Positions 3,100-63,500 of a stretch of 64,000 bases of DNA are shown here, piece after piece; the first letter of the stretch is position 1, and each line of letters begins with the position of its first letter. The position numbers and the translations under genes were made by a program. Where the stretch lies: assembly GCF_030028105.1 (NCBI RefSeq), contig NC_092396.1, forward strand, positions 23,499,738 through 23,563,737. Reading direction: 5' to 3'. Source of the DNA: Mobula birostris (taxonomy: Eukaryota). The notes below the pieces were generated by a model. The model was not told where the DNA came from. It did not search any database and worked only from the letters and a program-made list of their open reading frames with translations.

Positions 3100-4148
3100 G
3101 AATTCGCCTGCAGTAAGAGAAGGACAAGCTAAAATCAGATCTATCAGTGTTAAAATGGAGTAAAAGGAATTACAGAGGCATGAGAGAGGAGATGGCTAAA
3201 GGATTGGAAGGGGACACTAGCAGGGGTAACAGGAGAACAACAGTGGCTGGAGTTTCTGGGGGAAAATTGGAAGGTGCAGGAAAGATACATCCCAAAGATG
3301 AAGAGTATTCTAAAGGGAGGATGGGGCAACCATGGCTGACAAGGGAAGTCAAAGACAGCATGAAAGCAAAAGAGAGTGCATGTAATATAGCAAAAATTAG
3401 TGGGAAGGTAGAGGATTGGGATGTTTTTAAAAATCAACAGAAGACAACTAAAAAAAAGGGCCATAAAGTGAGAAAAGATGAAATATGAAGGTAAGATTGC
3501 CAATAATTTAAAAGTGTATACCAAAAGTTTTTTTCCAGATATATAAAGAATAAAAGAGAAATGAAAGTAGATATTGGACTGCTGGGAAATGATGCTGGAG
3601 AGGTAGCAATGGGGGGACAAAGAAATGGCAGATGAGCTTAATAAGTATTTTGCATCAGTCTCACTAGCAGACAGCCAGAAATGCATGAGTGTCAGGGAGC
3701 AGTAGTGAGTGTTGTTGCTATTACTAAGGAGAAGGTGTTTGGGAAGCTGAAAATTCTGAAGGTAGATAAGTCACCAGGACCAGATGGAATACACCCCAGG
3801 GTTCTGAAAGAGGTAGCTGAAGAGATTGTGAAAACATTGGTAATGATCTTTAAAGAATCACTAGATTCTTGAATGGTTCTGGAGGACTGGAAAATTGCAA
3901 ATGTCACTCCACTCTTTAAGGGAGGGAGGCAAAAGAAAGGAAATTATTGGTCGGTTAGCCTAACTTCAGTGGTTATAAAGATGTTGAAGTCTACTATTAA
4001 GAATGAGGTTTTAGAGTACTTGAAGGAACATGACAAGATAGGCTAAAGTCACCTTGGTTTCCTTAAGGGGAAATCTTGCCTGACAAATCTGTTAGAATTC
4101 TTCGAGGAAATAACAGGCAGTATAGACAAAGGAGAGTCAGTGGATATT

Positions 4149-5319
4149 TAAACGCAAACAACAGGAATTCTGCAGATGCTGGAAATTCAAGCAACACACA
4201 TCAAAGTTGCTGGTGAACGCAGCAGGCCAAGCAGCATCTGTAGGAAGAGGTGCAGTCGACGTTTCAGGCCGAGACCCTTCGTCAGGACTAACTGAAGGAA
4301 GAGTGGGTAAGGGATTTGAAAGTTGGAGGGGGAGGGGGAGATCCAAAATGATAGGAGAAGACAGGAGGCGGAGGGATAGAGCCAAGAGCTGGACAGGTGA
4401 TAGGCAAAAGGAGATACAAGAGGATCATGGGACAGGAGGTCCGGGAAGAAAGACAAGGGGGGGGGGACCCAGAGGATGGGCAAGAGGTATATTCAGAGGG
4501 ACAGGGGGAGAAAAAGGAGAGTGAGAGAAAGAATGTGTGCATAAAAATGAGTAACAGATGGGGTACGAGGGGGAGGTGGGGCCTTAGCGGAAGTTAGAGA
4601 AGTCGATGTTCATGCCATCAGGTTGGAGGCTACCCAGACAGAATATAAGGTGTTGTTCCTCCAACCTGAGTGTGGCTTCATCTTTACAGTAGAGGAGGCC
4701 GTGGATGGACATGTCAGAATGGGAATGGGATGTGGAATTAAAATGTGTGGCCACTGGGAGATCCTGCTTTCTCTGGCGGACAGAGCGTAGATGTTCAGCA
4801 AAGCAGTCTCCCAGTCTGCGTCGGGTCTCGCCAATATATAAAAGGCCACATCGGGAGCACTGGACGCAGTATATCACCCCAGTCGACTCACAGGTGAAGT
4901 GTTGCCTCACCTGGAAGGACTGTTTGGGGCCCTGAATGGTGGTAAGGGAGGAAGTGTAAGGGCATGTGTAGCACTTGTTCCACTTACAGGGATAAGTGCC
5001 AGGAGGGAGATCAGTGGGGAGGGATGGGGGGGACGAATGGACAAGGGAGTTGTGTAGGGAGCGATCCCTACGGAATGCAGAGAGAGGGGGGGAGGGAAAG
5101 ATGTGCTTAGTGGTGGGATCCCGTTGGAGGTGGCGGAAGTTACGGAGAATAATATGTTGGACCCGGAGGCTGGTGGGGTGGTAGGTGAGGACCAGGGGAA
5201 CCCTATTCCTAGTGGGGTGGCGGGAGGATGGAGTGAGAGCAGATGTACGTGAAATGGGGGAGATGCGTTTAAGAGCAGAGTTGATAGTGGAGGAAGGGAA
5301 GCCCCTTTCTTTAAAAATA
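4149..5319 (-). mobile_element. Penelope-like element 3' part (GIY-YIG endonuclease and pseudo-LTR) nested in CR1
   Basis: ORF 4584..4910 GVIYC..C..CGLLYIGET.R.L; 12-bp TSD TCAGTGGATATT at 4137-4148 and 5320-5331. Confidence 0.88.
4253..4290 (-). ncRNA. Putative minimal type I hammerhead ribozyme (best-preserved copy)
   Basis: Minus strand reads tagtc-CTGACGA-agg gtctcgg cct-GAAAC-GTC-gactg: intact core, stem I AGTC/GACT, stem II AGG/CCT, palindromic ACGT in place of stem III. Confidence 0.7.
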
Positions 5320-6719
5320 TCAGTGGATATTGTTTATTTGGAATTTCAGGAGGCCTTTGAGAAGGTGCCACACATGAGGCTGCTTAACAAGATAAGAGCC
5401 CTTGGTATTAAAAGAAAGATACTAGCATTGATAGAATAGTGGCTGACTGGCAGAAGAAAGAGTCAGAATAAAGGGACCCTTCACTGGTTGGCTGCCTGTG
5501 ACCAGTGGTGTGCCACAGGGGTCAGTATTGGGACTGTTTCTTTTCATGTTATATGTCAATGATTTGGATAAAGGAATTGATGGCTTTGTGGCTAAGTTTG
5601 CAGACAATGCAAAGTAGGTGGAGGGTAGGTAGTGTTGAGGCAGCAGGATGTCTGCAGAAGGACTTAGGAGAATGGGCAAAAAAGTGGCAGATGGTCATGC
5701 AGTTTGGTAGAAGGAATAAAGGTGTGGACTATTTTCTAAATGAGGAGAAAATTCAAAAATCAAAGGTGCAAAGAGATTTTGGAGTCTTTGTATAGGATTC
5801 CCTAAAGTTTAACTTGCAGGTTCAGTCAGTGTTAAGGAAGGCAAAAGCAATGTTAGCATTCATTATGAGAGGACTAGAATACATAAGTAAAGAAGTAATG
5901 CTTAGGACTTATAAGGCATTGGTCAGACGGCGCTTGGGGTATTGTGAGCAGTTTTGGGCTTCTTATCTAAGAAAAGATGTGCTGGCATTGGAGATACTCC
6001 AAGAGGTTCACAAAATTGATCATAGGAATAAAAGGATTAACATATGAGGAGTGTTGACTCTGCCTGTACTTGCTAGAGTTTATAAGAATGGGGGGGGGGT
6101 CTTATCGAAAACTGTCATGCTGAAAGGCCTTGATAGAGTGAATGTGGAGAGGATATTTCCTATAGTGGGGGTGGGGGTCTAGGACCAGAGGGCACAGCCT
6201 CAGAATAGAGGGATATCCATTTAGAACAGAGATGAAGAAAAGTTTTTTTAGCCAGAATGTGGTGAAACTGTGAGATTCATTGCCACAGATGGCTATGGAG
6301 GACAAATCATTGGGTATATTTAAAGCGGAGATTGATAGGTTCTTGATTAATCAGGGTGTCAAAGGTTACAGGGAGAAGGCAAGAGAATGAAGTTAAGAGG
6401 AATAATAAATCAGCAATGGTGGACCATGCTCGTTAGGCCAAGTAGCCTAATTCTGCTCCTATGCCTTATGGTCCTATGATTAGGTAGTAAGAATCATTCT
6501 GTGGCAAGGCCTTCTGTGATGCAGAGGCCATGGTGGGTTCGGGGTTGGAGCAATGCGGCTAATGAGATGAGGATGAGGGGGAGGTTTGTTCAAGCCCCAC
6601 AGGAAGAAAGAATTTTTACAGCTTTCTTTCCTTCATCCCTGTATTCAGACAGCTGCCAAACCAATTTAAAGCTATAACAACGTAAACAGTTAAACACTTC
6701 ATACAAGTTGAAAGGCTAA

Positions 6720-8019: not shown

Positions 8020-9700
8020 ATACTTGACCACTTCATTTTCATCATGGATGTCCAGTCCCTATATACTTCAATCCCCCATCAAGAAGGGGCTTAAAGCTTT
8101 CTGCTTCTTTCTCAATAAAAGAACTAACCGGTTCCCTTCCACCACCACTTTCTTTGTCTGGCAGAACTGGTTCTCACAGTCAAACAATTTCTCCTTCAGC
8201 TCCCTCCACTTCCTCTAAACTCAGGTGGTAGCTATGGGCACCCAGGTGGGCCCTAGCTATGCCTGCCTTTTCGCTGGGTACATGAAACAGTCCATGTTCC
8301 AAACCTTCACCAATAATGCTCCCCAATTCTTCCTCCGCTGCATTGATGACTGCATAGGTTCTACTTCACACACCCATGTTGAGCTAGTCAATTTCATCAA
8401 CTTTGCCTCCAACTTCCACCCTGCCCTTGAGTTCACTTGGTCTATTTCTGACACCTCCCTCCCCTTTCTCGATCTCTCTGTCTCCATCTCTGGAGACAAA
8501 ACTGTCAACCGCCACCTTTTATGAACCTACTGATTCCCATGGTTATCTTGACCGTATCTCTTCCCACTCTGTGTCCTGTCAAAACGCTATACCTTTTTCC
8601 TCAATTCCTTCATCTCCACCGCATCTGGTCCCAGGATGTGGCTTTTCTTTCCAGTACATTAGAGGTGTCCTTCAAAGAACAGGGTTTCCCTTCCTCCACC
8701 CACAACTTCTCCATTTCCCAAACACCTGCACTCACCCCATCTTCTTGCTGCTTTAATAGTGGTAAGAGTTCTTGTTCTTACTTACCACCCCATGAGCCTC
8801 TGCATCCAACAGATCATTCTCCGCAACTTCTGCCATCTGCACCCCCCCCCCCGCCTTACGCAGGGATTCGTAAACATCCTGATGAAGGGTTCCGGCCCGA
8901 AAAGTCGACTGATCGTTTCCACGGATGCTGCCCGACCTGCTGAGTTCCTCCAGCATGTTGTGAGTGTTACACAGGGATTGCTCCCTCTGTGATTCCCATG
9001 TCCATTCATCCCTCTCAGCACTTATCCCTGCAAGTGGCCAACGTGCCCATTCACCTCCTCCCTCACCTCCATTCAGCGTCCCAAACAGTCCTTCCAGGTG
9101 AGGCTGTGAATCTGCTGCAGTCGTCTATTGTGTCCGGTGCTCCTAATGCTCCTCTACATTGGTGAGACCCATCATAAATTAGGGGACCTCTTCGTTGAGC
9201 ACTTGTGTTCCGTCTGCCAAAAGTGGAACTTCTCAATGGCCATTTTAATTCCAATTCACATTCCCGTTCCAGTATATCGGCCCATGGCCTCCTGTTGTGC
9301 CAAGATGAGGCCACACTCAGAGTGGAGGAACAACAACTTATATTCCCCTGGATAGCCTCCAATTTCTCCTTCCGATTAAACAAAAAAAATCCCTCCCCTC
9401 TTCTTCTATTCCCTATTGTGGCCTCTTACCTGTTCTCACCCACCTATCACCTCCCCCGGATCCTCTCCTCCTTCCCTTTCTCCTACTGTCCACTCTCCTC
9501 TCCTATCAGATTCCTTCTTCTCCAGCCCTTTACCTTTTTTAGTGTGGTGACTTCCCCCTTCCTTTCCAGTCCTGAAAGAGAATCTCAACCCGAAATGTCG
9601 ACTGTCTGTTCACTTCCATCAATGCTGCCTGACCTGCTGAGTTCCTTCAGCATTTTGTGTGTGTTGCTTTGGATTTCCAGCATCTGCACAACTTCTCATG
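8020..9700 (+). mobile_element. Decayed Penelope-like element (RT, GIY-YIG, pseudo-LTR)
   Basis: MDVQSLYTSIPH, AMGTQVGPSYACLF, LRCIDD, LYIGET motifs; degenerate hammerhead at 9567-9604. Confidence 0.82.
8869..8966 (+). mobile_element. 98-bp hammerhead-plus-tail mini-insert of Penelope origin
   Basis: CTGATGA-agggttccggccc-GAAAA-GTC-gactg plus tail; flanked by TTACGCAGGGATT / TTACACAGGGATT. Confidence 0.7.
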
Positions 9701-11294
9701 TTGACGGCATTCACGTCAGCCTCCACAGCTGAATGACTGCCAACTGTACCTCTCTGTCACTACGTTCATTCAACAGTCTTACATTATTAGATTTTTGCCC
9801 AACATCCAATTGTGAGGGAGTTGCAACTCGGTCTGATGCCTTTCAGTAAGTTCTTCTCTTTTGTTGATTGTGTTGTCTGAGGTTAAACAATGTTTTTTTT
9901 CCCTCTAAAATCACCTTACAATGATCTTACCTCTCTCTTTCTCTATTCCTCTCTAATCTTTCACCATGCCTCTATTTTCCCCAGATATCCATTCTATTCC
10001 ATGTCTCACGTATTCTCAAATTTAATTATTCCACTTTGGCAGGCATTCACTCAGTTAGTAATGCCTGTAATTCTGGAATACTCTTTCTGGATCTCTCTTC
10101 CTCCCTTTCTTTTTTTTAAAGAAGCTCTTTAAAACCTACTTACCTGTCTACTAGCTCTTTAACAAAAACAGAAAATGATGCAAGCACTCACCAGGTCATA
10201 AGACCAACTGAAGTAGAAATAGGAGATAGTCATCTCATCGTTCCAAGCTGTTCTGCTATTTATTAAGTTTATTGTTGATTGTCTACCTCAGTGTCTTTTT
10301 GATCTTTTAGTGAACACTTGTTGGGCATCCATTGTCCTCTAAGGTGCAGAATTCCATAGTTCATCAACCAGTGAGAGGGGAAATTTCTTGTTTTAATTCT
10401 ACTCGCTTTGAAATTGAGCCCTTTATCCCTCAATGCTCAGTCAGGAGAGCCATCTTCTCTGCAGCTAGCCCGCCAAGCCCTTTAAAGAACCTGTAAAGCT
10501 TCAATGAGATTCTTCTAAATTCCATAGTCCTGGTCCACATCAAAACCACTATCTCTGAAACCAGTTCCCTGAATCTTTCGTGCACTTACCTTAATGGTAA
10601 GTACATCCTATCTTACCAAAGCTGTACCCAATACTGAGTCTTACCAATGTACTAAACAATTGCAATACTGTACAACTTCCATACACTTGTATTTAAATCA
10701 TCCTACAATAAAGAACAAGCAGCTCCAATGTGAAAGAATCAGAGCCAATTTTTCAGACCACGGACCTGTTATCAGAAGTCAAAAAGTGAGACAGTAAGCA
10801 TGTTTTAAGTTTGCAAAGAGGAGGAGGGTATATTGGTTGATGCCCTATGTTTATTGTAAGCCCATTAACTTTCACAGCTATTTCAACTTCTTCTCTCACC
10901 CTAGTTCATGTGGGGACTCCATTCCCTCACTCAACGTATTTATTTACTCTGGCAATGAGACTTTTGTCATCAATGTATTTAAATTGTTTCCCCCTCTATC
11001 ACAGTTAACGTGGCTCTCAAAAGCATCTCCTCTTACTCCCACAATTTTGCTTTTATCCTTACCCATTGTTTTCTATGTTTACATCACCAGCTTCCATATC
11101 CAACAGTTCTCCACAATTTTCAGCAACTTCAACAAGATTCTACCACCATGTACTTCTTCCCATTCACTCCAGCTGCTCCAGTTTTTTTGCTCCTGTCAAT
11201 ATCCTCTTTTGTGATCCTGTCAATTTCTATTTGATAACTTCTCATGTAGATTCTTGGACTATTTTGTTCTGCTTGAAGTTGTTTTTTTTAATCG

Positions 11295-19330: not shown

Positions 19331-20223
19331 CAGATTGAACACACTTTGTCCAAAGTGCTTGAAACTGGAAATGTTTCAGATTTCAATTCTGCAATATTTG
19401 CATCTATATAATGCAATAACTTGGGGATGGAACCCAAGTCTAAACACGAAATCCATTTACATTAGATATACAGCTCATCTACAGCTGGTGTGAACCTCAC
19501 AGAGTAAACAGACGGCAATTGAAGCAGTCTGACTCGATGGAGCTGGGTCAGAGTTGAATGACTGCCCTCAACGCTATTATTGGATTCATATCTGCCATCG
19601 ATTTCAAACAGCCACCCATTCCACAGCAAGAAAGGAGGGGGTAGTTTATAAAATATTTTTAATAATTCTGTGCGTGAAACAATAACGTGTACATTGAATC
19701 ATCAGAAAGGTAAGCTATCACTACCTCAGCCACCAGGTGGACAGTCAGTGGCTGCTTGGCATCACTATCATTCCCGACTCTGAATTTATGTGTTACCAGT
19801 ACGCAGACTTTGTCTTATACTTGTTCATCACACATTTTTTGCTGATACAACCGATCAGCGTGTAGATTTTCATCAGTGACGATCTTGGAAAACTCATCAG
19901 TGAATTTCTCTGCTGCTTTGTCATCTTTAAAATCTTTAAAAAGTTAACACAGTGCTCTGAAAAAATCCCCCTTTCATGATCGAGATCTTCATTTTTCACT
20001 TTATGCAGTGTTTTTTTCATTAACTTCTGTCATTTCATAGGTGAGGTCAGAACTGTCGAACACCTCAGAACTATCTGTGGTATACAGAAATCTGTGCATC
20101 GTCTAGAATCTTCCCAGCACCTTGTGGAATTTTCCATTTGTGACGTCATGTTCAGCATTCAAAAAATTCAGTTTTTGGAGGTTTTCAGATTTTGTAATAT
20201 TGGAAAAGGGGTGTTCAACCTTG
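19331..20223 (-). mobile_element. Tigger4-like (pogo family) internally deleted DNA transposon
   Basis: TA-flanked TIRs cagattgaacac / gtgttcaaccttg; ORF fragment MKKTLHKVKNEDLD resembles Tigger/JRK-type transposase. Confidence 0.6.
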
Positions 20224-21023: not shown

Positions 21024-22599
21024 CAGGTGTCCCCCGCTTTTCGAACGTTTGCTTTACGAAACCTCGCTGTTACGAAAGACCTACATTAGTTACCTGGTTT
21101 TGCTAACAGAAGGTGTTTTCACTGTTACAAAAAAAGGCAGCGCGTGCCCCAAGCAGTCAAGCTCCTCCCCCGGAACTGCATTCTAGTTGGCATTGCCTAA
21201 ACACGTGCCTGTGAGCATCTGTGCTTTATCTCAATTTATTTTGAGCATCCATTAGCAAGGTGAGTTCTAAAGTATTGGAAAAGCCTAAAAGAGCTCGTAA
21301 AGGTGTTACACTTAGCGTAAAACTAGACATAATTAAGCATTTCCAGCGTGGTGAATAAAGTAAGGACAAAGTGAGTTTGGCTTGTGGAAGTTGATGAAGA
21401 TGATGTTGAAGAGGTTTTGGCATCCCATGACCAAGAACTGATAGATGAAAAGCTGATGCAATTGGAAGAGGAAACCAAATGCAGTAGTGAACAGACCGAA
21501 AGTGAAGTCGTCCAGGAACTGAACATGAAGCAACTGCGTGAGGTTTTCACTGCAATGATTGCAGAAAAGTACGATTTTAATTTTGAAAGGGTACTTCGGT
21601 TTAGGGCATATTTGCAGGATGGTTTGAGTGCTTACAAAGAACTGTATGATAGAAAAATGCGCGAGACTAAGCAATCAAGCATACTGTCATTTTTCAAGCC
21701 TTCCACCTCAGCCACAGCAGACGATGAACCTCGACCTTCGACATCGAGGCAGGCAGACATAGAAGAAGAAGACCTGCCTGCCCTGATGGAAACAGACGAC
21801 GATGAGATGACACCCCAGTGTCCCACCACCCCAAACTCCGGGCCGCGGACTGATACCGATTCACGAAGTGTGCAACGGTAGCCAGGACACACCCAGCACA
21901 TCTTTAAGAAAAAAGCCAAAATAAACAAGCTAATTAATTAGGTGCCGCCTGGCACCTAAATGTTGGCCCAGATCAGAGGTGACCACTTATTAATTAGCTT
22001 GTTTATTTCGGCTTTTTTCTTAAAGATGTGCTGGGTGCGTCCCGGCTACCGCTGCATGCTTCGTGGATCGGTATCAGTCCGCAGCCTGGAGGTTGGGGAC
22101 CACTGCACCACCCCAACCTCCGACAACTCAGCCTAACACACCATCATCAGTGTGCTCGGCGCTGTCTTCCCGACTCCGGTAAGTAATACTACACTGTACA
22201 TACATTATTTCTACGTTATATAGACTGTGTATTTTTATGTGTTATTTGGTATGATTTGGCAGCTTCATAGCTTAAAGGTTACTGGAGAGAGTGTTACTGC
22301 CGACAGCACTTGCGTGAGATTTTCGCTACGGTGGACAGCGCGGCAATGATTGTAGAAAAGTATTTCTACTTTATATAGGCTGTGTATTTATCATACCATT
22401 CCTGCTTTTACTACATGTTACTGTTATTTTAGGTTTTGTGTGTTATTTGGCATGATTTGGTAGGTTATTTTTTGGATCTGTGAACGCTCACAAACTTTTC
22501 CCATATAAATAAATGGTAATTGTTTCTTCACTTTACGACATTCCGGCTTACGAACCATTTCATAGGAACGCTCTACCTTCGGATGGCAGGGGAAGCCTG
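21024..22599 (+). mobile_element. Tigger/pogo-like non-autonomous DNA transposon with an internal long palindrome
   Basis: TA-CAGG...CCTG-TA termini; HTH remnant RKGVTLSVKLDIIKHFQRGE fused to acidic C-terminus with PIP box QSSILSFF (ORF 21384..21881); DDE core absent. Confidence 0.8.
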
Positions 22600-31539: not shown

Positions 31540-31990
31540 AACGCCAGTATCGCCGCGCTTTATTTATTTTCCTGGAATCTCGGTTAGGAACGACCGGACT
31601 CCCTACATCTCTCCGACGATGGAGCGGAGAGTGTCACTAACATCCCAATCACTCCCGGGAGTCCCATCTCCCTCTCACACCTTGACTTCCTCGATCATGT
31701 CCTCAGTGAAAATATTTTTCGCCACCAGCCGGCTATAAAGGTGTTCAGGTTGCAGGTTGTTCACCAACGTTACTCGGTGCTTTTGCAGCAGCCTTCGTTG
31801 ACTCTCTTCCATCTTGGCGGAGCCCTCGACCGCTGAGCTACCCGGGGTTTCGACCCACCCAAGATGGCTGCGCGGCGTTGACCGACTCAAGATGGCGCCG
31901 TTGACGCGCTCAAAATGCCTGCGCGAGGTTGACCCACTCAAGATGACTACGCTGACGTACTCAACCTGGTGGCGGCCCCTGTACTCAGAG
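31540..31990 (-). promoter_or_regulatory. CASP9 CpG-rich promoter/5'UTR with tandem CAAGATGG (YY1-like) units
   Basis: Local CpG enrichment around exon 1; five degenerate units at 31847-31975. Confidence 0.6.
31681..31812 (-). CDS. CASP9: Caspase-9 exon 1 (CARD N-terminus, MEESQRRLLQKHRVTLV...DMIEEVK)
   Basis: GCCAAGATGG Kozak context; 44 codons then GT donor; CARD-like sequence; lies in a GC/CpG-rich region. Confidence 0.93.
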
Positions 31991-32661
31991 CAACGATCCT
32001 TGTGGGAGTTTTAAAAGCTTGCAGATGCTGGAATCGGGTGGAAAAATAAATACACTGCTGGCCGCTGAGTTCCTCCAGTAGCCTGTTTTTTAAACACCCA
32101 TGGGAGTCTGGCTCAGAAGCCAGAACAGGTCAAATCTAATATAAACGCTGTTTCAAAAATTCTCTAAACACTTGCCAGGGTCAGACAGCATCTGAGGATT
32201 CAAGGAGGAACGTTTCCAAACCATCTGAAAAGTGTATATCAAAACGAGTAGATCTTAAAGAACAAGTAATTCAGGAAATGCTGAAGCTGTCTGACCTACT
32301 GAGCATCTCCAGGGTATTCTGTTTTACTTCCAACATCTGGAGGGTTATTTTTGTTTGTTACTTTGTTATTTTAAAACTTACACATCTAACTACCATTTGC
32401 TGCACCTGCTGATTTAAAGGAAAATTTCAAAGGATTTAAAATCAAAAACGACTCAGGATGTAGGCATAGAACTAAAATTATTGTTTATAGAACAACTTCT
32501 GTCAAGGTTGCTAAGGGAGCAACCCTCTATTCTCTCAAGTTCAGGTTCATTGTCATTCAGACATACAAGTGTGTACTGTCAAATGAAACAACGTTCCTCT
32601 GAAGCAAGGTGCACAACACCGTACATATAACTCACAGACAACACATCCTTTAATAATCCCA

Positions 32662-33376
32662 AACACGAGAAAATCTGCAGATGCTGGAAATTCAAGCAAC
32701 ACATTCAAAATGCTGGTGGAACGCAGCAGGCCAGGCAGCATCTCTAGGAAGAGGTACAGTCGACGTTTTGGGCTGAGACCCTTCGTCGGGACTAACTGAA
32801 AGAAGAGATAGTAAGAGATTTGAAAGTGGGAGGGGGAGGGGGAGATCCAAAATGATAGAAGAAGACAGGAGGGGGAGGGAAGAAGCTAAGAATTGGACAC
32901 GCCAACTGAACTTCTTCTTATAGATGCAGCCTGGCCTGCTGCGTTCCACCAGCATTTTGTGTGTGTGCTTGAATTTCCAGCATCTGCAGATTTTCTCATT
33001 TTTGTGTTTTTAAATTCACTACTGTGAAGCTTCTTACAGTGATGCCTACACTGAAGAAGTTTAAATCTTCTCTTCGACAGGAGTTTAGTGAAACCCTCTC
33101 TCACTGTTCCCCATCTGCAATTTCTTCAGCCCTTCAACTTTTTGACCATACTCTCACCCAGACCCGCTATTACAGCCATATATCCTTCCTTGGAACATGT
33201 CCAGCTCTTAGCTTCTATCATTTTGGATCTCCCCCTCCCCCTCCCATTTTCAAATCTCTTAATATCTCTTCTTTCAGTTAGTCCTGACAAAGGGTCTCGG
33301 CCCGTAACTTCGACTGTACTTCTTCCTATAGATGCTGCCCGGCCTGCTGCGTTCCACCAGCATTTTGTGTGTGTTG
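32662..33376. mobile_element. Penelope insertion with inverted pseudo-LTRs and a probable ORF N-terminal remnant
   Basis: Minus pLTR, plus tail with short ORF, plus pLTR; mutated hammerheads at 32757-32794 (-) and 33279-33316 (+); TSD CTTTAATAATCCCA at 32648-32661 and 33377-33390. Confidence 0.8.
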
Positions 33377-33525
33377 CTTTAATAATCCCAGATATTTTTT
33401 CTGTCTGCTTGGACAGGAGGTACAGAAGCCATGTCACCAGGTTCAAGGACAGCTACTTCCATTTGGTTCTAGAATCTACCAGAACAATTTCAATCCCTGC
33501 AGTGTAACAGCATGATGATCACCTT

Positions 33526-33754
33526 CAAAGTTGCTGATGAATGCAGCAGGCCAGGCAGCATCTCTAGGAAGAGGTACATCCGACGTTTCAGGCCGAGACC
33601 CTTCCTCAGGACTAATCGTTAGTCCTAACGAAGGGTCTCGGCCCAAAATGTTGACTGTACCTCTTCCTAGAGATGCTGCCTGGCCTGCTACGTTCACCAG
33701 CAACTTTGATGTGTGTTGCTTGAATTTCCAGCATCTGCAGAATCCCTCGTGTTA
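33526..33754. mobile_element. Fold-back Penelope mini-insert: two inverted hammerhead-plus-tail arms
   Basis: About 90-bp inverted arms around ggactaa-tcg-ttagtcc; TSD ATGATCACCTT at 33515-33525 and 33755-33765. Confidence 0.8.
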
Positions 33755-35179
33755 ATGATCACCTTGGTCACTTTGCCCGAAAAAAGACTTTGTTGTTTTT
33801 TTGTTCTAAGTGTGTTCTTTCTTGTAAAAAGTCATGTATAATTTATGGGGTTTTTTTACATAAGATGCTATATGCCTATATGTTATGCTGCTAGTACATT
33901 TTTCATTGCGCTTATACATAAGACAATAAACTCCACTTTGACTCTAGCAATAGTTGTAAATCTGTTGATTTCACCCCTCTGATTTTCACTTTCTGATTTA
34001 CTTTTTACTCACTTCAACATGCATCCCATTGCCTTTGTGCTTGAGCAGATCCCAGTTATCCCATTAAAACAGAATTTGCTGGAAAATCTGAAATTAAAAA
34101 AAAACAAAATAAAATGGTGGAACTACTCAGCAGTTCTGGTAGCACCTGTGGCGAGAGAAAGAATTATATAAATAATTCAGGTGCTGAGGGGCTGAACAGG
34201 CTGTGTGCCTCTTTGTGCTGGCTCCTACAGTGGACAGAAATAACCATGCTAATTGTTGTTGCGTGAATGAAATCACTGGAGAAAATTACTGGTAGATGTG
34301 AAGCAGCTTCCTTATTGTAACAAACAAGGTACAGCAGACATCACAAGGAGACGCTTTCGGTCAAAAGGTCTGCTGGCTCGACGTGGGGCTCAATACTTTA
34401 TGTGTCCAACATCAAAGGACAGCTCCATATTTACAATGTATGGACAATGCTTTCTTTGAAGGTACATACAACCCTCACACCTCCTGATTCACACCCACAC
34501 CAACGACATCCAAATGAATTTCAATCAGCATGTCTGGACTGCGATTCACAGCTTGTCGGAACTCATTGGTTCAGAGCTGCACCACAAATTAAATGCACAA
34601 TACATATTCAGATATGAAGACTGGGAGCCAAAGTCAATTGCTAAATGTCTATGTCCTAAACCCAAAAATCACTCAACACTAATCAAGGTGAGGTCCAACT
34701 AGAGCGTGATCAGACCAATTTGGATTTCCTTTGATTGGCATTTATTTGTTCTGCTTGGTTGTTTCATTAGCTCATCTTGGTAAATCTACCAAAGCTTCCT
34801 GATGCCTGTCTTCTGTTCTCTTTGCCGTATTTCATTCTCGTCCATTTTAATTTTATCATCTACTTTTGATTTTCACATATTTTACACTTAACGGTTTGTG
34901 ATCTCCAATTAATGAACATACTGCTCCTTCCAATCTGCTAGCACTGCATTTCCAGATCCAGTTGTTCCAACATGGAATCCGGTGGTATGTTATCACTATT
35001 AACTCCTTACTCTTGTTTTTATTCAAAGGTTTATTTTATTATCAAAGCATATATGCAGAATAGAACTCCATAAGATACAGAAAAACCATGGAAACCATTA
35101 ATCCTGTTGGCCTTCTGATTTCAGTCAGTGTTATACCTATACCCAAGATTTATCTGAATCACCAGAGCAGAGTTTTGAA

Positions 35180-35790
35180 CTTATTAAATTGGGGGACCAC
35201 ATCACAGGGCCCCTCCACTCCATCTGCCAAAAGTGGGACTTCCCAGCGGCCAAACATCTTAATTCCCATTCCAGCATTTTGGTCTATCACTCAACTTGTG
35301 CCATGATGAGGCCACCCTCAGAGTAGAGGAGCAACACCTTATATTTCGTTTGGGTAGCCTCCAAACTGACAGAACGAATATTGATTTTTCCTTCTGCTAA
35401 AAAAAAATTACTCCCCTCCCCCTTCTTCTATCCCCTACTCTGATCTCTTACTGCTTCTCAGCTGCCTATCACTTCCCTCTGGGTCCCCTCCTCCTTCCCT
35501 TGCTCCTATGAGCCACTCTCTTCTCCCAACAGGCTCCTTCCTCTCCAGTGCTTTATCTTTCCTACCCACCTGGCCTCACCTATCACCTTCTAGCTCTCCT
35601 CCTTCCCCTCCCTCAAACTTTTCAGTCTGACATCTTCCCCCTTCCTTTCCAGTCCTGAAGAAGGGTGTTGGCCCAAAAATTCGTTTATATATTCATTTCC
35701 ATAGATGCTGCTTGACCTGCTGAGTTTCTCCAGCGTTTTGTGTCTGTGTTGCTTTGGATTTCAAGCATCTGCAGACTTTCTGGAGTTTAT
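35180..35790 (+). mobile_element. Penelope-like 3' fragment (GIY-YIG end and pLTR)
   Basis: gaggccaccctcagagtagaggagcaacacc; degenerate hammerhead near 35650; tail. Confidence 0.75.
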
Positions 35791-36003
35791 GAACTAAATG
35801 GTAAAATAATGCTGCAGGAAAATGTTAGTAACAGATGTAGCAAGTGTTAGGAAGACAACTGGGACATTGACCTAACTTGTAAGAGGGTCGGAACAGAGAA
35901 ATATGGAAGTATTGTTCCAATTTTACAACATGCTGGGTGAAGCTACACCCGCAATGCTGTACACAGCTTTGATCCTCTTATTGAAAAAAGGATATACTGA
36001 TAA

Positions 36004-36146
36004 TGGAGGGAGTCCAAAAGAGTACACTAGGCTAATTCCTGGGATAGGGGGTTAATTTAATGTAAGTATCTAATAAAATTTCTTAAGCTACTTACATTAA
36101 ATTAACCCCAGGAATTAGCCTAGTGTACTTTTTTGAACTCCCTCCA
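36004..36146. repeat. Inverted repeat (about 60-bp arms, 20-nt spacer) within a CR1 remnant
   Basis: agtacactaggctaattcct...ggggttaatttaatgtaagta versus its reverse complement. Confidence 0.85.
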
Positions 36147-37104: not shown

Positions 37105-37893
37105 GTGGGTGAGAGGGATACTTTGCTCATAGGGAGACGTGGAATTGCTGGAGTTGGGTGAGTGGGTCGGGAGGTGGCAGAGTGCGAGATGGAATGATCT
37201 GTAGGAACAATCAACCCACTAAATCTGCTTCACTTCATGGAATCATTATGGTTATGCCCTTTACTCCTCCTTTATTCACTAAATCATCAGCTAGACAGTC
37301 CCGTGTGTTTAAAAAAAACACTCAAAAAAAAGAGGAAAATGTTCTGCAGACTTCTTCGGGTTCCCCCGAGTTACTGAAAGCAGTCCAAGAGGTCATCCGA
37401 AAAAGGACGCTTGCTTTTTTAAGGATGCAATCGATTCATTTCCAGCTGTGAGCGACCTCTCTTCCATTTTGAAGGCCCACACCTGGCATATCAGGTAGCA
37501 ACTTGGGCGATGGTTCCGGAACTCTCATGGAACCCATCGGGTGAGGTTTGGAGAGATTGAGTGGAAATATACTCCAATGTTGCCTGAAATAGTTGAATGA
37601 GTGAAGAGAGGTTCAACATGAGCACAAGCGATTCTGCAGAGGCTGAAAACACAAACTGCTGGAGCAAGTCAGGCAGAAGGCTCTCTGCCCACACGTCGAT
37701 TGTTTATTCCCCTCCATAGATGCTGCCTGACTTGCTGAGTTTCTGCAGCTTTTTGTGTGGGGCTTCAAAACGAACTGTTTTCTGCTACTGTATACAGAGG
37801 TTTAGGTTATTAATTCTGTATGTATTGTCCTGTGCTCACCTGTTGCATTTTTCTTCTTCTCTCCCCCCCCCCGCCCCCCCAACCTCTAATTAG

Positions 37894-38004
37894 ATCTTGG
37901 GTTCAATTTGACATTCAAGATTTCAGATGATCCTGGTCTGTCTCTAATTAAACATGGAGAGTTTCTGTATGATCACCTCATAATTTTTTCACCGTCTGTG
38001 GAAG
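37894..38004 (+). CDS. DDOST: DDOST exon 2 ([37 protein letters not shown])
   Basis: tag/gtaag flanks, phase 1-1. Confidence 0.96.
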
Positions 38005-41030: not shown

Positions 41031-41464
41031 CACATGATTCAATCCCTCCCTGTCTCCTGATCTCATTTTGTGGTTGAGAAGAGCCTTTAAATTTATACTT
41101 GAGCATCAATTTTTTGTTTTGGTTAAATTTAGCTGGTTTTTGAATGATGGAAGTAGCTTTAGGTTGTTTTATGTTAATATATGCTCCAGTAAGTAATGAC
41201 TTCATAATGTGTTTAGAATATTATTTCCGTGGACGTTTCATAATTTTGAAAACATGAAACGTGATGATGGGCAGTTGTGATAATGGTTGGAAAAACTTAA
41301 GGAAAAAATAAAGCAAAAATTGAAGTAGAAATTATTTACAGTTTGATTTAGGATTCTGTGAAATACTGAAGAAAAATCTAGCGTTGCAGTTGTAAATACA
41401 TAATTGGAACTTTGATAATGAAGTGACCCTTTATGCACAGCTTAGTTAATTTAAATTTAGTTCA

Positions 41465-42720
41465 TAAGCAAGAGAAAGGCTGCAGATGCTGGAGATCCAA
41501 AGCAACACACACAAAATGTGTGTTACAAAATGCTGGAGAAACTCAACAGGCCAGGCAGCTTCTATGGAAATGAATAAATAGTCAGTTTTGGGCTAAGACC
41601 CTTCTTGAGGACTGGAAAGGATGGGGGAAGACACCAGAATAAAAAGGTGGAGGGAGGGGAAGGAGGAGAAATAGAATGTGATGGGTGAAGCCAGATGGGG
41701 AGGAAAGGTAAAAAGCTGGAGAGGAAGGAGTCAGGTGGGAGAAGGGGGTGGATCATAGGAGGAGGGGACCCAGGGGGAAGTGATAGGCATCTGAGAAGCA
41801 GTAAGAGATCAGAGTGGGGAATAGAAGAAGGGGGAGGGGAGTAAATTTTTTTTAGCAGAAGGAGAAATCGATACTCATTCTGTCAGTTTGGATGCTACCC
41901 AGACAAAACATAAGGTGTTGCTCCTCGATATGAGGATGGCCTCATCATGGCACAAGTTGAGCCATGGACCAAAATGTCAGAACAGAAATGGGAATTAAAG
42001 GTGTTTGGCCACCGGGAAGTTCCACATTTGGCGGATGGAGTGGAGGTGCTCGACAGAGCGGCCGCCCAATTTACGATGGGTTTCACCAATGAGGAGGAGG
42101 CCGCATCGGGAGCACAGGAGACAATAGACGAACCCAGCAGATTTGCAGGTGAAGTGTTGCCTCACCTGAAGGACTGTTTGGGGACTTGATTGGAGGAGAT
42201 GGACAGTTGTAGCACTTCAGCCACTTGCCGGGAGGGAGATTAGTGAGGATGGACGAATGGACGAAGCAATCACAGAGGGAGTGATCCTCGCAGAAAGCAG
42301 GGTGGGGTGGGGGAGGTAGGATCCCTTTGGAGATGGAGGAAGTTGCAGAGAATAATTTATTGGGTGCAGAGGCCAATGGGGTGTTGGGTGAAGACAAGAA
42401 GAACTCTATTACTATTAGGGCGGCTGGAAGAGTGTGTGAGCATGGATGTGTGGGAAATGGAGGAGATATGTGTGGAGGAAGGGAGGCCCATTCTTTGAAG
42501 GAAGACGACATCTCTGATGTTCTGGAGAGGAAAGCTGCATCCTGGGAATTGATGTGGTGGACACAATAGCAAGGGAATAGCATTTTTATAGGTGACAGGA
42601 TGGGAAGGGGTATCGTCAAAGATTACTGTGCGAACTGGTAGGTTTTAAAAGATGTTGGTTGAAAGCTTGTCTCCAGAGATGGAGATGGACATCAAGAAAG
42701 GGGAAGGAGGTGTCAGAAAT
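41465..42720 (-). mobile_element. Penelope-like element 3' part in DDOST intron 2
   Basis: RT C-terminus and GIY-YIG remnants; degenerate hammerhead near 41580-41615; tail. Confidence 0.8.
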
Positions 42721-43815
42721 AGTGGCTATGTTTATTTTTGGTGGCTTTTGTGGGCCAAGTAGGCAGCACTGCTGTTGGGATAGACTAATGTCAGATAGCC
42801 TAGGAATTATATTGGACTAGCAAATAGAGTTCTGTACCATGGGTCCAGGTAGGCAGGCAGGTGCATTTGGGTTCCACCATGGAAAATGGAATTTAGCTTC
42901 AATGACAAAATAAATCTGCAGATTAAAAAATTGCTAGTTTCAGGGATGGCACCCACAAAAACTACTGGATTGCTGTCCTTGGTCTGCCTTGGGAAACTCA
43001 GACCCACCAATGTTATTGACTAGCTGCCTCCTGTTCGGGTTCAATTAAACATGGATAATTTAAAAAAAAGGTGTGTGTGTTGTATGGAAAATAAAATAAA
43101 TATCCTGTGATTCATTGACCTTAAGCAGAGTGTGAACAAGTCGTTTAATGAGAGATTAGCACAAACCAATGTGACCCTTGTACAGTACTGTGGGTCTTGC
43201 AACAGTTTCTGAACAGTAAGACCTTCAGCCAGTTTTCCCTTCGTAAATGAAGGCGTGAAGATCTGTCAAGTGAATTGAAAGCAGCCAATTTAATGTTGAC
43301 TAAAGATATGATCTGTCTTTGGTTTTCTATGGATTTGTGTAGCATTGAAGGTAAGTTTGATAGCGTAAAATTACTGATCAACCTTTTTTTGTGCAGTTGA
43401 ACAGATTAAAAACATACGATAAACTTTTCATGTGCTATTGCATTTTCCACCTTGCTGCAAACAGTCAGGAATTACATAAAATATTAGAGGCAAAGGCTTT
43501 GAACGGAGAAAGTGCAGGAACAACAGAGGATTTTAAAAGAAGTCACGTTGAAGTAGATTATATAAGACCATTGCCCTTAAGGAATTGTAGCTTTTTGTCT
43601 TGTGGTGCACATTGGCTGATAAAAGGATTATGGTATGTACACTGCCGTGTATTGTCAGTGTATAAAATGTTGGATCAAGTGGAACTTCTGAAAGAAAAGA
43701 CAGTTGAGAGCTGATGCATTGGAACAAGTGGGTGTTAGAGCTGTGTTTTACTTGTTACAGAACAGCTAGAAAGGATAAAAAATTGGGATTAATGGAAATT
43801 TGCTTTTGTTTTCAG

Positions 43816-43902
43816 ATTTCGGAGGCAACATTAATGTTGACACTATTGCCACATTCATTGATGGAGGTGGAAATGTACTGGTCGCTGCGAGCTCCGACAT
43901 TG
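43816..43902 (+). CDS. DDOST: DDOST exon 3 ([29 protein letters not shown])
   Basis: ttcag/gtaag flanks; conserved OST48 motif. Confidence 0.96.
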
Positions 43903-44439
43903 GTAAGCATAAGGAATAAATACTACATCTGAAATGATCTTGGTCTCTTGAGTAGTTCAACAGTGTAAATTTTAGGCTTGGTTTTTTAAAAAAAAAAGCC
44001 TCTATGTACAATAAACATCATTACCTTGGGATGTTTCAAAGTTTTTAACAGTCATTAAAATACCTTTGAGGTTTAGGCACTGTTTTAACATATGAAGCGT
44101 GTCAGCCAATTTGTGGCAAAAAGGACCCACAAATGGTTTTAAAAGAAAAATGCTTGCTACTCACTGTTGGTTTTGACAGTGATGCACTTTGTCAGAACCT
44201 GTGGTGGTCAGTGAGATCTTTTATATCTGTTTTTTTTTTAATCAACATTTGGATTTAAATCAACATTTTAAATCCAAAGGAAAATATCTCGAACACTCTA
44301 TCAAGACTGATGGTTTGCATTGAATTTGTGGGAATGTGTGTGCATACAGAAAAGGTTGCAGTATTCCAAAAGATCAATATCTTTCTCAAATTTAAATTTA
44401 TGAATTTTCAGGGTAAATGAGCTAAACTAAGGTTATAAT

Positions 44440-57420: not shown

Positions 57421-58077
57421 CTCAGGTAATTTGGTTTCACTTTTTGATATCACTCCATTGAGGCACCTCAGGATAGTTCCCTTCATCCTGTTGTCACGTG
57501 TATTTTTGTTGTGATGTGTGCTAGGGCAGCAGTCTTTACTGATCACACCACCAAGAAATGCCCAGAGCAGATGTTGATGTAGATGTTTCTGTTCCTGGTC
57601 AAAGGCTGAATACAGTTTGTTCTGATTAGTATTTATTTTCTGTGATTGAACAACATCTTTGCTGTAGAGAAAGATGCACTCTTCTGGACTTTTTGGTTAT
57701 TCCTCTACCTTCATTTCTGTGCTTTTGTCTGTAGTCTCTCCCACCAATCATATGCAGTGAAAGGTGTGGTGTGTAAATAGTTCAGGTACGTATGGTGGAA
57801 TGAAGGTAGAGGAGTAACCAAAATGAATCCAAGAGGGGTGTATCTTTTCTCTACACCAAAGAAGTGGTCCAACCACAAAATAAATAGGACACACGTGAGT
57901 TCAGCCTTTGACCAGAAACAGAAACATCCGTTCTGGCCATTTCTTGGTGGTGTGATTAGTAAAGACTGCTGCCCTAGCACACGTGACAACAAAAACAAAC
58001 GTGACAGCAGGCTGAAGGGAACTATCCTGAGGCGCTTTAATGGAGTGATAGCAAAAAGTGATACTAAATTACCTGAG
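57421..58077. repeat. Long imperfect inverted repeat (about 290-bp arms, about 80-nt loop) in DDOST intron 10
   Basis: For example gtgctagggcagcagtctttact and agtaaagactgctgccctagcac are exact reverse complements. Confidence 0.9.
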
Positions 58078-60430: not shown

Positions 60431-60568
60431 ATGTTACTCACCGTATACTGTGTGCGGCGCGACCTGAGTGAGATCACCTTCACCCTGCAGGTGGACGGCA
60501 GCCTGGAGCTGGAGACCTTCCGGGCGCTCTGTGAAATGGAGAGTAACGTTCCCGCTGCCGAGAGCCAG
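60431..60568 (+). CDS. DDI2: DDI2 exon 1 (UBL domain N-terminus, [21 protein letters not shown]...PAAESQ); no further exon recognised in the window
   Basis: GTCGCCATG Kozak; 46 codons; gtgag donor; N-terminus recognisable as vertebrate DDI2; CpG island; intron-containing, unlike intronless mammalian DDI1. Confidence 0.92.
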
Positions 60569-63500
60569 GTGAGAGCAGGAGAGGCCTTCACAAACTGGAA
60601 GACCCAGGCAATCCCATATCCTGTTTGCCACACCCGGTTACTTATCCCGTTGAAGAGTCCCGGCCCGAAAGACTGAATGTTTATTCCTGACCGGCTGAGT
60701 TCCTCCAGTTTTTAATGGGTTGGTCTGGATTTCCAGCATCTGCAGAATCTCCTTGTGCTAATGATTTGCGGCTATATATCCTTTCTGACACCCTACTGAA
60801 CGATGTCTGTGATTACACCCGCCCTGACCTCATAAACACATAGCTCCAACTCTGTAAAGAACGATATCTATAAGCAAATGAATATATATCGGTAGCGATA
60901 ACACAAATTGGACCCGTCTAAGTATCTGGACACAGTTATGTAATAGAGTTGCGGAGCTATAAACTCCGATTCTGCTTTAGTTTCAAATGATGTGTCCGTT
61001 TTGACCCGCAGGGTGTATCTTGGCGCCCACTGCTGTGTAAATACTAATACACTTCCGCTATATAGTAATTGTATTTAATACAACTGAGTTACTTAAAACC
61101 ATTTTATGGGACATCTTGGTATACGCATATGAGTGCAGAGGAGTGTGTGTTGATAGATAAACTCTATGTAGTAGTTGTAAGTACATCTACATTCACGAAT
61201 ACATATCCAGAAACCCAGATACACTGTACACAGCAGTGCTATATATACAACAGGTTTGCTATTTCTGGCTGTAATATTGGCAACATTACTCTTGCAGCCG
61301 CCACACGCTCCCTGCAGCAACATCCAATAGCAATCAGCTACAGACTGAGATACCACTGCACCTGTTTCTGCACATCCTGCATGGTGCATTTTGAAACAAC
61401 AAAATGAAAGAAAACCATTCTGACTCTTAAATGACCTGAGGTTTCACTGACTAATATAGCCTGCATGTGAAATAAGAGCAGGTAGTATAGCCTGTTTGGT
61501 AAGATCTTGGCTAATTTGAACCTTGGCCTCAGCTCTACTTCGTCACCGTAATCCCCGATTCCCTTTTCCACCAAAAATCTTATCTTGAATACAGTAAATG
61601 ACCTGGTCTCCAAATTCCCCCGGAGTAGAAAATTCCAAAGAACCACAGTTTTCAAAGGGAAGAAATTCCCCTGTTATATCATTTATTAAATTATTTAATA
61701 ACACATAAAAAAGGAAATTATTTATTTGAAACTGTGCCCCCTACTGGTGGATTCTCCCACAAGCAGAAACATAGTTTCAACATCATCTCTTAAATCATTA
61801 CACATTTCCACCTTTTATGACGGGGACGTAAGGTTAGACTTTGAAAGGTGGGGGGGGGGCGGAGGTGAACACTTGTTAATTGATGTTGATCCAACTGGAA
61901 GAGATGTAAGTAGAAGGGGGACTGGGGTGGTGGGATTGGTCAAGGGCCAGTTAGATCCAAATTGGAATGGCTGTTCTAGTTTAACGTTCCAGTTTAATCT
62001 AAAATTGCTGAATTCCATATTATGTCCTGATTGCTATAACTTTCCCATAGGTTTATTTCAGTAAGATCAGCTGTCATTCTAAATGAAGCATAACTACTGG
62101 AATATTTCTTTGGAAGATACCCATCTCATCTCAGGAATCAACCTTAACTGAATTGTCACTGTTCCACATATATTCCTTCTTAATCAGTAGTCCAAAACTG
62201 CACAGTAAACTACAGCATTATCAGCATCTCGTATTAAGCAGGAGCTCAGTCCTCTTTCATTAAAGGTCAACATCGTGTTTGTCTTCCTAATTACTAGTTT
62301 ATCGAACTCTAAATTTATGTTTTATGAACAAGGACACCCAGAGTGCTTCTACAGCCAGTGTTCTGTAGTTTCTATTTAAACGATACTCTGCTTTTCTAAC
62401 TTTAAAGTGAATACCTCATGTTTTCCTACTTTACATGACATCTGCCAGGTTTTTTGCCCACTCATTCAGCCAAACTATTTAGTTTTGCAGAGACAATGTA
62501 TTCTCACAACCCTTAAGGAGTAGATGCAGGATTGATGTTTATTCTGGCAGGGGTGTTCAGATAACAAACAACGGGAGTCATTTGCACTTTGGAAGTAGAT
62601 TAGATTCAACTTTATTGTCATTTTGCTTACAGATACAAAGCCAATGAAGTGCGTTTAGCATCTGACCAGAAATGCGAAGAATAGTGTTTTTATAAAATAA
62701 CTATGAATAAAAAAAGTGCTACAGCACACAAATATAAAAGTACTGAGACAGTACAATACGAATGCAATACCACTTAGCGCTGTGATGAGAGGTTCAGCAG
62801 TGTCACTTGAACCTTAACTGAAGCATCTGCAAAACATAAATTAGATCAGGAGTCCAGAATGCTACACAGTGCTCTGTGCATGACATGGTCTTGTCAACAT
62901 CCAGTACAACTTGCATTGAGGGGTTAGGGGGTTAGTGGAGGAACAGGATACTGGATTAAAACTTCACCTATAATCTCATCGAATGTAGACAGGCTGAGGA
63001 CCTGAATAACCTGTTATTTCTTGTCCTTATATTTTATCACATTGTCAGCAAATTTAGTTATGGTACACTGAACCCATTCATCTCCATTATTAATATGTGT
63101 GGTAAATAGTTGAAGTTTCACTGAATCATGTGACACCACCTTAATTACATATTTTTCTAATGAAAATGATCCATTAATCTGGACTATTTTCTATTATTTA
63201 GCTAATCCTTTCTTCATGCTAATATATTGTATATCCCCAATAACATGCCCACTTCGAGTTATGAATACTCTTTTCCTCAGTACTTTCTTGGCTGATACCA
63301 TTCCTCGTGTGTGTCCTAGCCCTATTATCCCTCACAAATGCACATTTATCAGGATTCCATTTGTCATTTCTCTTCTCATCTTAACAACTTAGATTTTGGG
63401 GATTTATTTCTCTTTGAAGCCTCTATGATATCCGGTTCTAATGTGGTAAAATTTAGTAAATTATACATATAACTGCGGGAGATTCTTTAGTGTGCATAGC

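Follow-up and report, generated by a model that had tools for sequence, protein, structure and literature searches.

A predicted minimal hammerhead ribozyme at the 3′ end of an abundant Penelope-like retroelement of Mobula birostris

The locus and its Penelope-like element copies

The window analysed here is a 64 000 nt (64-kb) stretch of Mobula birostris contig NC_092396.1 (positions 23,499,738 to 23,563,737), and it carries a caspase gene that we take, from its QACGG motif, to be CASP9, together with DDOST and the first exon of a DDI2-like gene (Table 1). Dispersed through the window are copies of a Penelope-like element family that makes up 9.5 % of it; three inverted pairs are present, and there is no full-length element copy in the window. 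As many as 191,909 contigs of sequencing run X1 align to 701 bp of the element, a contig count rather than a copy number; all run figures given here derive from contigs of runs X1 and X14 (the latter probably DNA), not from raw reads. Other repeats include a GC-rich tandem repeat at the 5′ end of the caspase gene (31852-31964, 28-nt period, 3.8 copies) and a 129-bp near-perfect, MITE-like palindrome in the spacer ahead of DDOST (36011-36139). Two long inverted repeats, at 21829-22098 (122-nt arms, 26 nt apart) and 57421-58077 (160-nt arms, 337 nt apart), are likely to be DNA-transposon remnants.

Table 1. Host genes, element copies and hammerhead motifs in the window
Feature	Position	Strand	Basis or remarks
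Caspase gene, CARD and QACGG	~31.9 kb to stop near 12.77 kb	−	
DDOST	36.9 to 58.7 kb	+	Exon 2 37893-38003, exon 3 43815-43904
DDI2-like gene, first exon	60431-60568	+	~1.7 kb past last DDOST exon found
5′-truncated Penelope-like insertion, 1171 bp, nested in LINE remnant	4149..5319	−	Junctions, target duplication
Open frame, 249 aa: RT thumb end, CX4CxxC linker, GIY-YIG endonuclease with CCHH	4584..5333	−	Alignment, Pfam
Pyrimidine-rich 3′ UTR/pseudo-LTR part, stop codon to ribozyme	4291..4583	−	Differs between two subfamilies
Predicted minimal type I hammerhead, only intact one	4253..4290	−	Descriptor; top match of relatives' model
Tail ~100-108 nt beyond predicted cut, kept in inserted DNA	4149..4252	−	Junctions; X14 loose ends at 4156
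Older decayed copy: RT, EN, UTR, hammerhead remnant 9567-9604 (G8 and stem II lost), tail	8040..9710	+	
Short copy inside older copy's frame; both boxes kept, palindrome lost, stem I down to 2 bp	8874..8911	+	
Inverted pair: 32757-32794(−) (U4, G12 lost) and tail-only 32896-33009(+)	32654..33009		
Short copy with remnant 33279-33316 (G8, A13, G16.2 lost)	33212..33383	+	
Head-to-head inverted pair from stem I: 33577-33614(−) with both boxes but a damaged stem I, 33620-33657(+) without G5 and G12	33525..33758		
Second-subfamily copy with EN end, UTR, tail and a hammerhead remnant, 35650-35687, that lacks G12 and the triplet region	35180..35795	+	
Inverted tail joined to hammerhead remnant without CUGANGA box	37613..37759		DDOST intron 1
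Second-subfamily copy, RT/EN remnant, dead hammerhead 41577-41614 (G5, G12, triplet lost)	41459..42722	−	DDOST intron 2, antisense
Strongly decayed hammerhead and tail	60642..60747	+	Intron 1 of DDI2-like gene

The insertion at 4149..5319 is bounded by a 12-bp target-site duplication (5331-5320 and 4148-4137); a second copy of the interrupted LINE carries a single target site, and in the run contigs the loose ends at 4145 run on as LINE. Its 249-aa frame, the first few codons of which are flank and not element, has its closest proteins in a stingray (74 %) and sharks (54-64 %), followed by marine invertebrates. The linker cysteines (C116, C121 and C124 of the window frame) are invariant or nearly so in the alignment, and the endonuclease (EN) part has the VIY and YIG motifs together with two Cys and two His residues that do not vary. 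When the 14 aligned members were compared with Pfam at E-values up to 1, GIY-YIG was matched by 13 and RVT_1 by 10; the 249-aa frame itself gives a weak GIY-YIG match (E 0.084, under the curated cut-off) and nothing at E 0.01, and none of the solved structures compared matched the alignment. Reverse transcriptase (RT) remnants precede EN in two longer copies, 8044-8851(+) and 42723-42300(−). A CX2-5CxxC linker between RT and EN is reported for Neptune and Nematis (Craig et al., 2021, PMC8557442), and a preprint reports only Neptune and Poseidon among vertebrate Penelope-like elements (Li et al., 2026, 10.64898/2026.07.22.740005), so the window element is likely to belong to the Neptune clade, an assignment drawn from the linker motif and the literature and not from a tree. 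We note that a stingray protein model (P0001), named as a kinase-domain protein isoform, is almost wholly element RT-EN and is likely to be a mis-annotation or an exonised copy.

The stop codon of the frame is followed after ~300 nt by the hammerhead motif, and a hammerhead lies behind the EN end in four window copies (4253, 9567, 35650 and 41577). The initial annotation had proposed a minimal type I hammerhead on a Penelope-like element from the sequence alone, and the GIY-YIG frame directly upstream of the 4253 copy bears this out. There are two subfamilies, which differ in the UTR and the linker and have the hammerhead motif in common; the similarity between them breaks exactly at the ends of stem I, with loose ends at positions 4253 and 4289. 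The motif has a summed depth of 18-25 million and the last EN codons one of 17-18 million, compared with 4-10 million for the UTR, these being contig depths that give no copy number. A pyrimidine tract ending in AG lies inside the stem I 5′ strand in both subfamilies (4286-4310(−), 35650-35630(+), 9567 and 41614). This AG resembles a splice acceptor, and the 8874 copy begins matching one base past it; in Penelope of Drosophila virilis the intron ends at helix I (Cervera & De la Pena, 2014, PMC4209133).

Occurrence, anatomy and conservation of the motif

An ungapped scan of the window with the 38-nt copy 4253-4290(−) as query and a cut-off of at most 14 mismatches found 10 places, against a mean of 0.03 in 100 shuffles of the window: 4253-4290(−), 8874-8911(+), 9567-9604(+), 32757-32794(−), 33279-33316(+), 33577-33614(−), 33620-33657(+), 35650-35687(+), 41577-41614(−) and 60642-60679(+). 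All nine places listed in the initial annotation are among them with the correct strands, the last being an addition; an eleventh copy, which has no CUGANGA box, is a remnant at ~37676-37704(+), and four pieces consist of tail only (13462, 30347, 32896 and 37613). The two core boxes taken alone occur at chance level in the window (5 matches, 4.34 expected). CUGANGA and GAAA are both kept in 3 of the 11 copies (4253, 8874 and 33577), and the whole descriptor (stem I, core, stem II, palindrome and NUH) is matched by one, 4253, and by nothing in 100 shuffles, in agreement with the earlier description of this copy as intact. The further suggestion of about nine self-cleaving modules is not supported, since in eight of those nine a catalytic base, stem I or the palindrome is gone. 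The Rfam models gave no hammerhead family in the window at E-values up to 1, their only matches being microRNA look-alikes on palindromes and microsatellites, and Tandem Repeats Finder reported no head-to-tail array of hammerhead units in the window.

The 4253 copy has a stem I of 5 bp, CUGACGA followed by an extra A, a stem II with a G10.1-U11.1 wobble, GAAA, a palindrome with a C15.2-G16.2 pair and a GUC triplet, and it is without helix III. Stem II, previously given as 3 bp, is of 4 bp, since a U-G pair closes the CUCG loop. The cut predicted from the descriptor is between 4258 and 4257 (− strand). Nearest-neighbour folding, the energies of which leave out tertiary contacts and magnesium, gives for the 38-mer an extended hairpin pairing core GACG with CGUC at −11.0 kcal/mol, versus −7.0 kcal/mol for the active form; for two motifs the values are −11.5 kcal/mol for a double hammerhead, −15.3 kcal/mol for a GUCGAC duplex across the cut site and −30.3 kcal/mol for the best cofold. 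The open core receives <0.1 % of the weight in all five sequence contexts folded, and the modelling therefore speaks against unaided activity of this copy. We note that GUC is repeated in stem I (4255-4260(−)), so that the cut site is at the centre of a GUCGAC palindrome; in the model this could produce an inactive dimer, and it is present in none of 13 distinct relatives. The tail hairpin is no more stable than shuffles (z −0.9 and −1.4), so no conserved tail structure is claimed. Nor is a distal stem I closing an internal loop, which was seen in the fold of the 32757 copy and is absent from that of 4253.

Relatives were sought by a scan of metagenome contigs, in which the best 80 of 481 matches gave 79 related loci, 45 of them eligible in having a complete EN end and at least 150 nt behind it; all the counts for relatives that follow refer to the loci from these best 80 of 481 matches. 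The motif is found in the sense direction 83-152 nt past the EN end in 16 of the 45 eligible invertebrate-relative loci and in the antisense direction in none (0/45), with 0 in 900 shuffles. The strict descriptor is failed by the other 29, several of which still score with the covariance model described below. Among 14 distinct motifs, the window's included, the extra A, which is optional in the descriptor, is present in all 14, and the 15.2-16.2 pair is C-G in 12 and U-A in 2, the palindrome being demanded by the descriptor. The extra A, noted in the initial annotation for most copies, is a feature of the published consensus (PMC4209133) and no peculiarity. In the 13 distinct relatives 93 % of the stem cells pair, six of the eight pairs change on both sides, and the covariation score is 0.689 compared with 0.223 when shuffled and ≤0.22 when slid, so that covariation of stems I and II, which the initial annotation had named as a check, is present across related elements. 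The relatives were chosen with a descriptor that demands pairing, and the pair counts consequently lean towards structure; that choice has no bearing on where the motif lies relative to the EN end. In the 13 aligned relatives the core letters do not vary, the rows having been selected on the core, while the stems vary freely.

A covariance model built from the 13 relatives alone places the 4253 copy first in the window (30.8 bits, E 5.9e-6), followed by 32757, 8874, 33577, 33620 and 33279, and gives 62 matches at E-values up to 1 in the related loci. Of the scans by descriptor and hammerhead model proposed at the outset, those with our descriptor and with this model thus recover the 4253 copy, and that with Rfam, at E-values up to 1, does not. 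A further candidate of the relatives' model at 19826-19881 (18.2 bits) was rejected as it has no proper stem II and triplet and lies inside the coding remnant of another repeat. In one relative (L019) a pLTR-ORF-pLTR unit is whole, and each of its two repeats has the motif, at a distance of 3066 nt. The element at L019:775-3926 is a complete one of Neptune type, with an open frame of 989 codons and an in-frame ATG straddling the predicted cut site. In zebra shark a protein model extends by read-through into LMKGLRPKRQ, which the motif encodes in the window's own frames, and by this correspondence in sequence the shark family is likely to carry the motif too. No exact match to the tail pattern (0 stretches) came from the viral, metagenome and prokaryote genome contigs scanned.

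Decay of the copies, proposed mechanism and alternatives

The copies in the window have 5′ ends scattered from RT to tail. A start at the cut site was considered and rejected, the 32896 copy starting ~8 nt before the cut. G12 is lost in 32757, 33620, 35650 and 41577 and G8 in 33279 and 9567, these residues being the general base and the general acid of the hammerhead (PMC6155905). In the five young copies the 11 core positions show 6 changes in 55 cells and the other motif positions 9 in 135, with CpG sites hit most (core 3/10, non-core 7/40); the lesions look like decay without selection, although the numbers are small. At position 11.1, U accounts for ~70 % of the aligned depth in both X1 and X14, with C at 28 % and 30 %; among 40 of the 125 variant rows, decay at other CpG sites is 2-31 %, which is less than would explain ~70 %, and U11.1 is therefore likely to be a founder state. 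Both window copies with U11.1 retain G12.

The two copies within 33577-33657 had been reported as a close pair, and both are present; they lie on opposite strands, however, so that they make a hairpin rather than a dimer (a transcript of 33525..33758 folds as one long hairpin at −158.9 kcal/mol), and dimerization in cis was rejected on account of this antiparallel arrangement. Inverted pairs are the usual Penelope junction (PMC8557442). The pair is joined exactly at the stem I 5′ end (33614-33620), and opposite-strand joints at 4288-4289 are also seen in runs X1 and X14; the stem I 5′ end is possibly a fold-back hot spot, a reading confounded by the subfamily boundary at the same place.

As to the host genes, the placing of copies next to CASP9 and in DDOST intron 2 was right as to position, the 41577 copy lying between exons 2 and 3, but this intronic copy is antisense to the gene, and the closeness to CASP9 and DDOST seems to reflect the usual density of repeats, given the share of the window that the family covers. 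An intact core is found in none of the three intronic hammerhead remnants (37676, 41577 and 60642), and both boxes are kept in three of the eight copies outside these genes, numbers too few for a test. The 4253 copy shares its strand with CASP9 and lies downstream of it, separated by ~8.5 kb from the stop and by 7.6 kb from the AATAAA signals.

We consider it very probable that a high-copy Penelope-like retroelement, likely a Neptune-clade member, bears the motif as a minimal hammerhead at its 3′ end, that in working elements two motifs would have to pair via ACGU for the element's own RNA to be cut after GUC, likely with the help of a protein, and that 10 of the 11 copies here are broken remnants. 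With helix III missing, a double hammerhead cutting after GUC would arise when two motifs joined at ACGU and exchanged their stem I strands; the natural partners may be the two pLTRs or the tandem units of one transcript, and the literature suggests that cleavage would be slow without the element's protein. The element would be copied from still-uncut RNA, since inserted copies keep ~100 nt behind the cut site, and the ribozyme and tail would be the part most often left behind, since most copies are 5′-truncated, with inserted copies then presumably decaying without selection. With one intact copy in 11, the predicted ribozyme is likely at most to cut the element's own RNA and to do nothing for neighbouring genes.

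Several other readings have to be weighed against this one. It is possible, though rather unlikely, that active elements retain the motif because of its fold, for protein binding or for dimerization, and that cleavage is rare or has no role. Insertions do retain the uncut motif and ~100 nt, and folding predicts inactive forms for this family; moreover, in PAc, a Poseidon element of Anolis carolinensis, core mutants leave insertion in vitro unchanged and RNA reads ending at the cut site are absent (Frangieh et al., 2024, PMC11167929), and in the preprint cited above eight of nine dimer elements tested did not cleave (10.64898/2026.07.22.740005). Yet the core is invariant and the stems are free in the 13 relatives, which admittedly were chosen on the core, the fixed position being independent of that choice; dimers of related minimal motifs are cleavage-active in vitro (PMC4209133), and the same PAc core mutants abolish cleavage (PMC11167929). 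That the motif is a chance resemblance inside an ordinary repeat, as the chance level of the two boxes and the lack of an Rfam match might suggest, is next to impossible: distant relatives whose stems differ have this fold in the corresponding position, the motif fits the published consensus exactly (PMC4209133), and its position in the relatives together with the covariation across them refutes the idea. The short copies might instead form a separate non-autonomous family, SINE-like or a retrozyme, and not be truncated element ends. Copies 8874, 33577 and 33620 consist of ribozyme and tail only, two events start within 3 nt of the stem I 5′ end, and joints at 4288-4289 are among the best supported in the run contigs; we nevertheless regard this as very unlikely, for there is no head-to-tail array in the window, the 5′ ends are scattered, inverted pairs are what Penelope junctions usually look like (PMC8557442), and the match of the second subfamily likewise stops at 4289.

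A takeover by the host, with dispersed copies acting as self-cleaving modules on CASP9, DDOST or other transcripts, seems extremely unlikely. The divergent CASP9-DDOST spacer and several introns do contain copies, the intact one being on the CASP9 strand, and trans partners are conceivable because the family is so abundant; but the intronic remnants have lost the core, the one in DDOST intron 2 runs antisense, the intact copy is kilobases beyond the CASP9 stop and AATAAA signals, and the core has changed at least as often as non-core positions. A bolder proposal, which we think very unlikely, is that rays bear the largest ribozyme load among vertebrates, that copies in different transcripts are dense enough for trans pairing and cleavage of host pre-mRNAs, that introns are in consequence purged of intact sense copies, and that the majority U11.1 lineage, being without the CpG that elsewhere destroys G12, lives longer. 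If the window were typical, intact hammerheads would number ~1 per 64 kb or ~15,000 per billion bases, a figure resting on one count and with a range of ~400 to 87,000. As it most likely stands, the retroelement reading is of little importance, extending the pattern published in 2014 to a cartilaginous-fish family. An abundant family with young copies does suit counting of intact and dead, sense and antisense intronic copies for a cost or service to the host, and a plot of insertion ends could test copying from uncut RNA in a second Penelope clade.

Comparison with known systems

The motif is closest to the minimal hammerheads (min-HHR) of metazoan Penelope-like pLTRs, the consensus of which (NNN CUGANGAH G..C GAAAN palindrome NUH; PMC4209133 supplement) it fits in every feature tested. 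It shares with them the extra base, the G at 10.1, the C-G 15.2-16.2 pair, the absence of helix III and a short stem I, as well as a U-rich upstream flank, the pLTR site and an occurrence mostly as dispersed single copies from truncated elements, and the G-U at 10.1-11.1 is found also in cichlid, Xenopus and coelacanth min-HHR families (PMC4209133). It differs from them in that stem II is only 4 bp and stem I repeats GUC. A Schistosoma min-HHR showed no activity as a monomer and low activity as a dimer (PMC4209133). No shark, skate or chimaera is named in the PMC4209133 supplement PDF, and our literature search returned no paper on this element family in rays; most subscription papers and the repeat databases lay outside that search, and preprint supplements may list the family.

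As in the Neptune clade, a C-terminal GIY-YIG endonuclease with CCHH follows RT and a CX2-5CxxC linker, the linker being common to Nematis (PMC8557442); the 3′ UTR of the window element is ~300 nt, versus 83-152 nt in the invertebrate relatives. Animal non-LTR retrozymes likewise have type I hammerheads derived from pLTRs, and have been reported from one chondrichthyan genome (10.64898/2026.07.22.740005), but they form head-to-tail arrays whereas the window copies are single or inverted. The resemblance to PAc lies in a hammerhead near the insertion 3′ end and an insertion end ~85-110 nt past the cut, which fits copying from uncut RNA; in PAc the ribozyme needs protein for its activity and is dispensable for insertion, and reverse transcription begins behind the cut site (PMC11167929). 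Unlike the window element, PAc is of the Poseidon clade and has no Zn-finger-like linker, and its activity has been measured, whereas the window element is known from its sequence. The minimal hammerheads of Penelope-like elements are thus a kind already known, and what is new here is a family member from cartilaginous fish.
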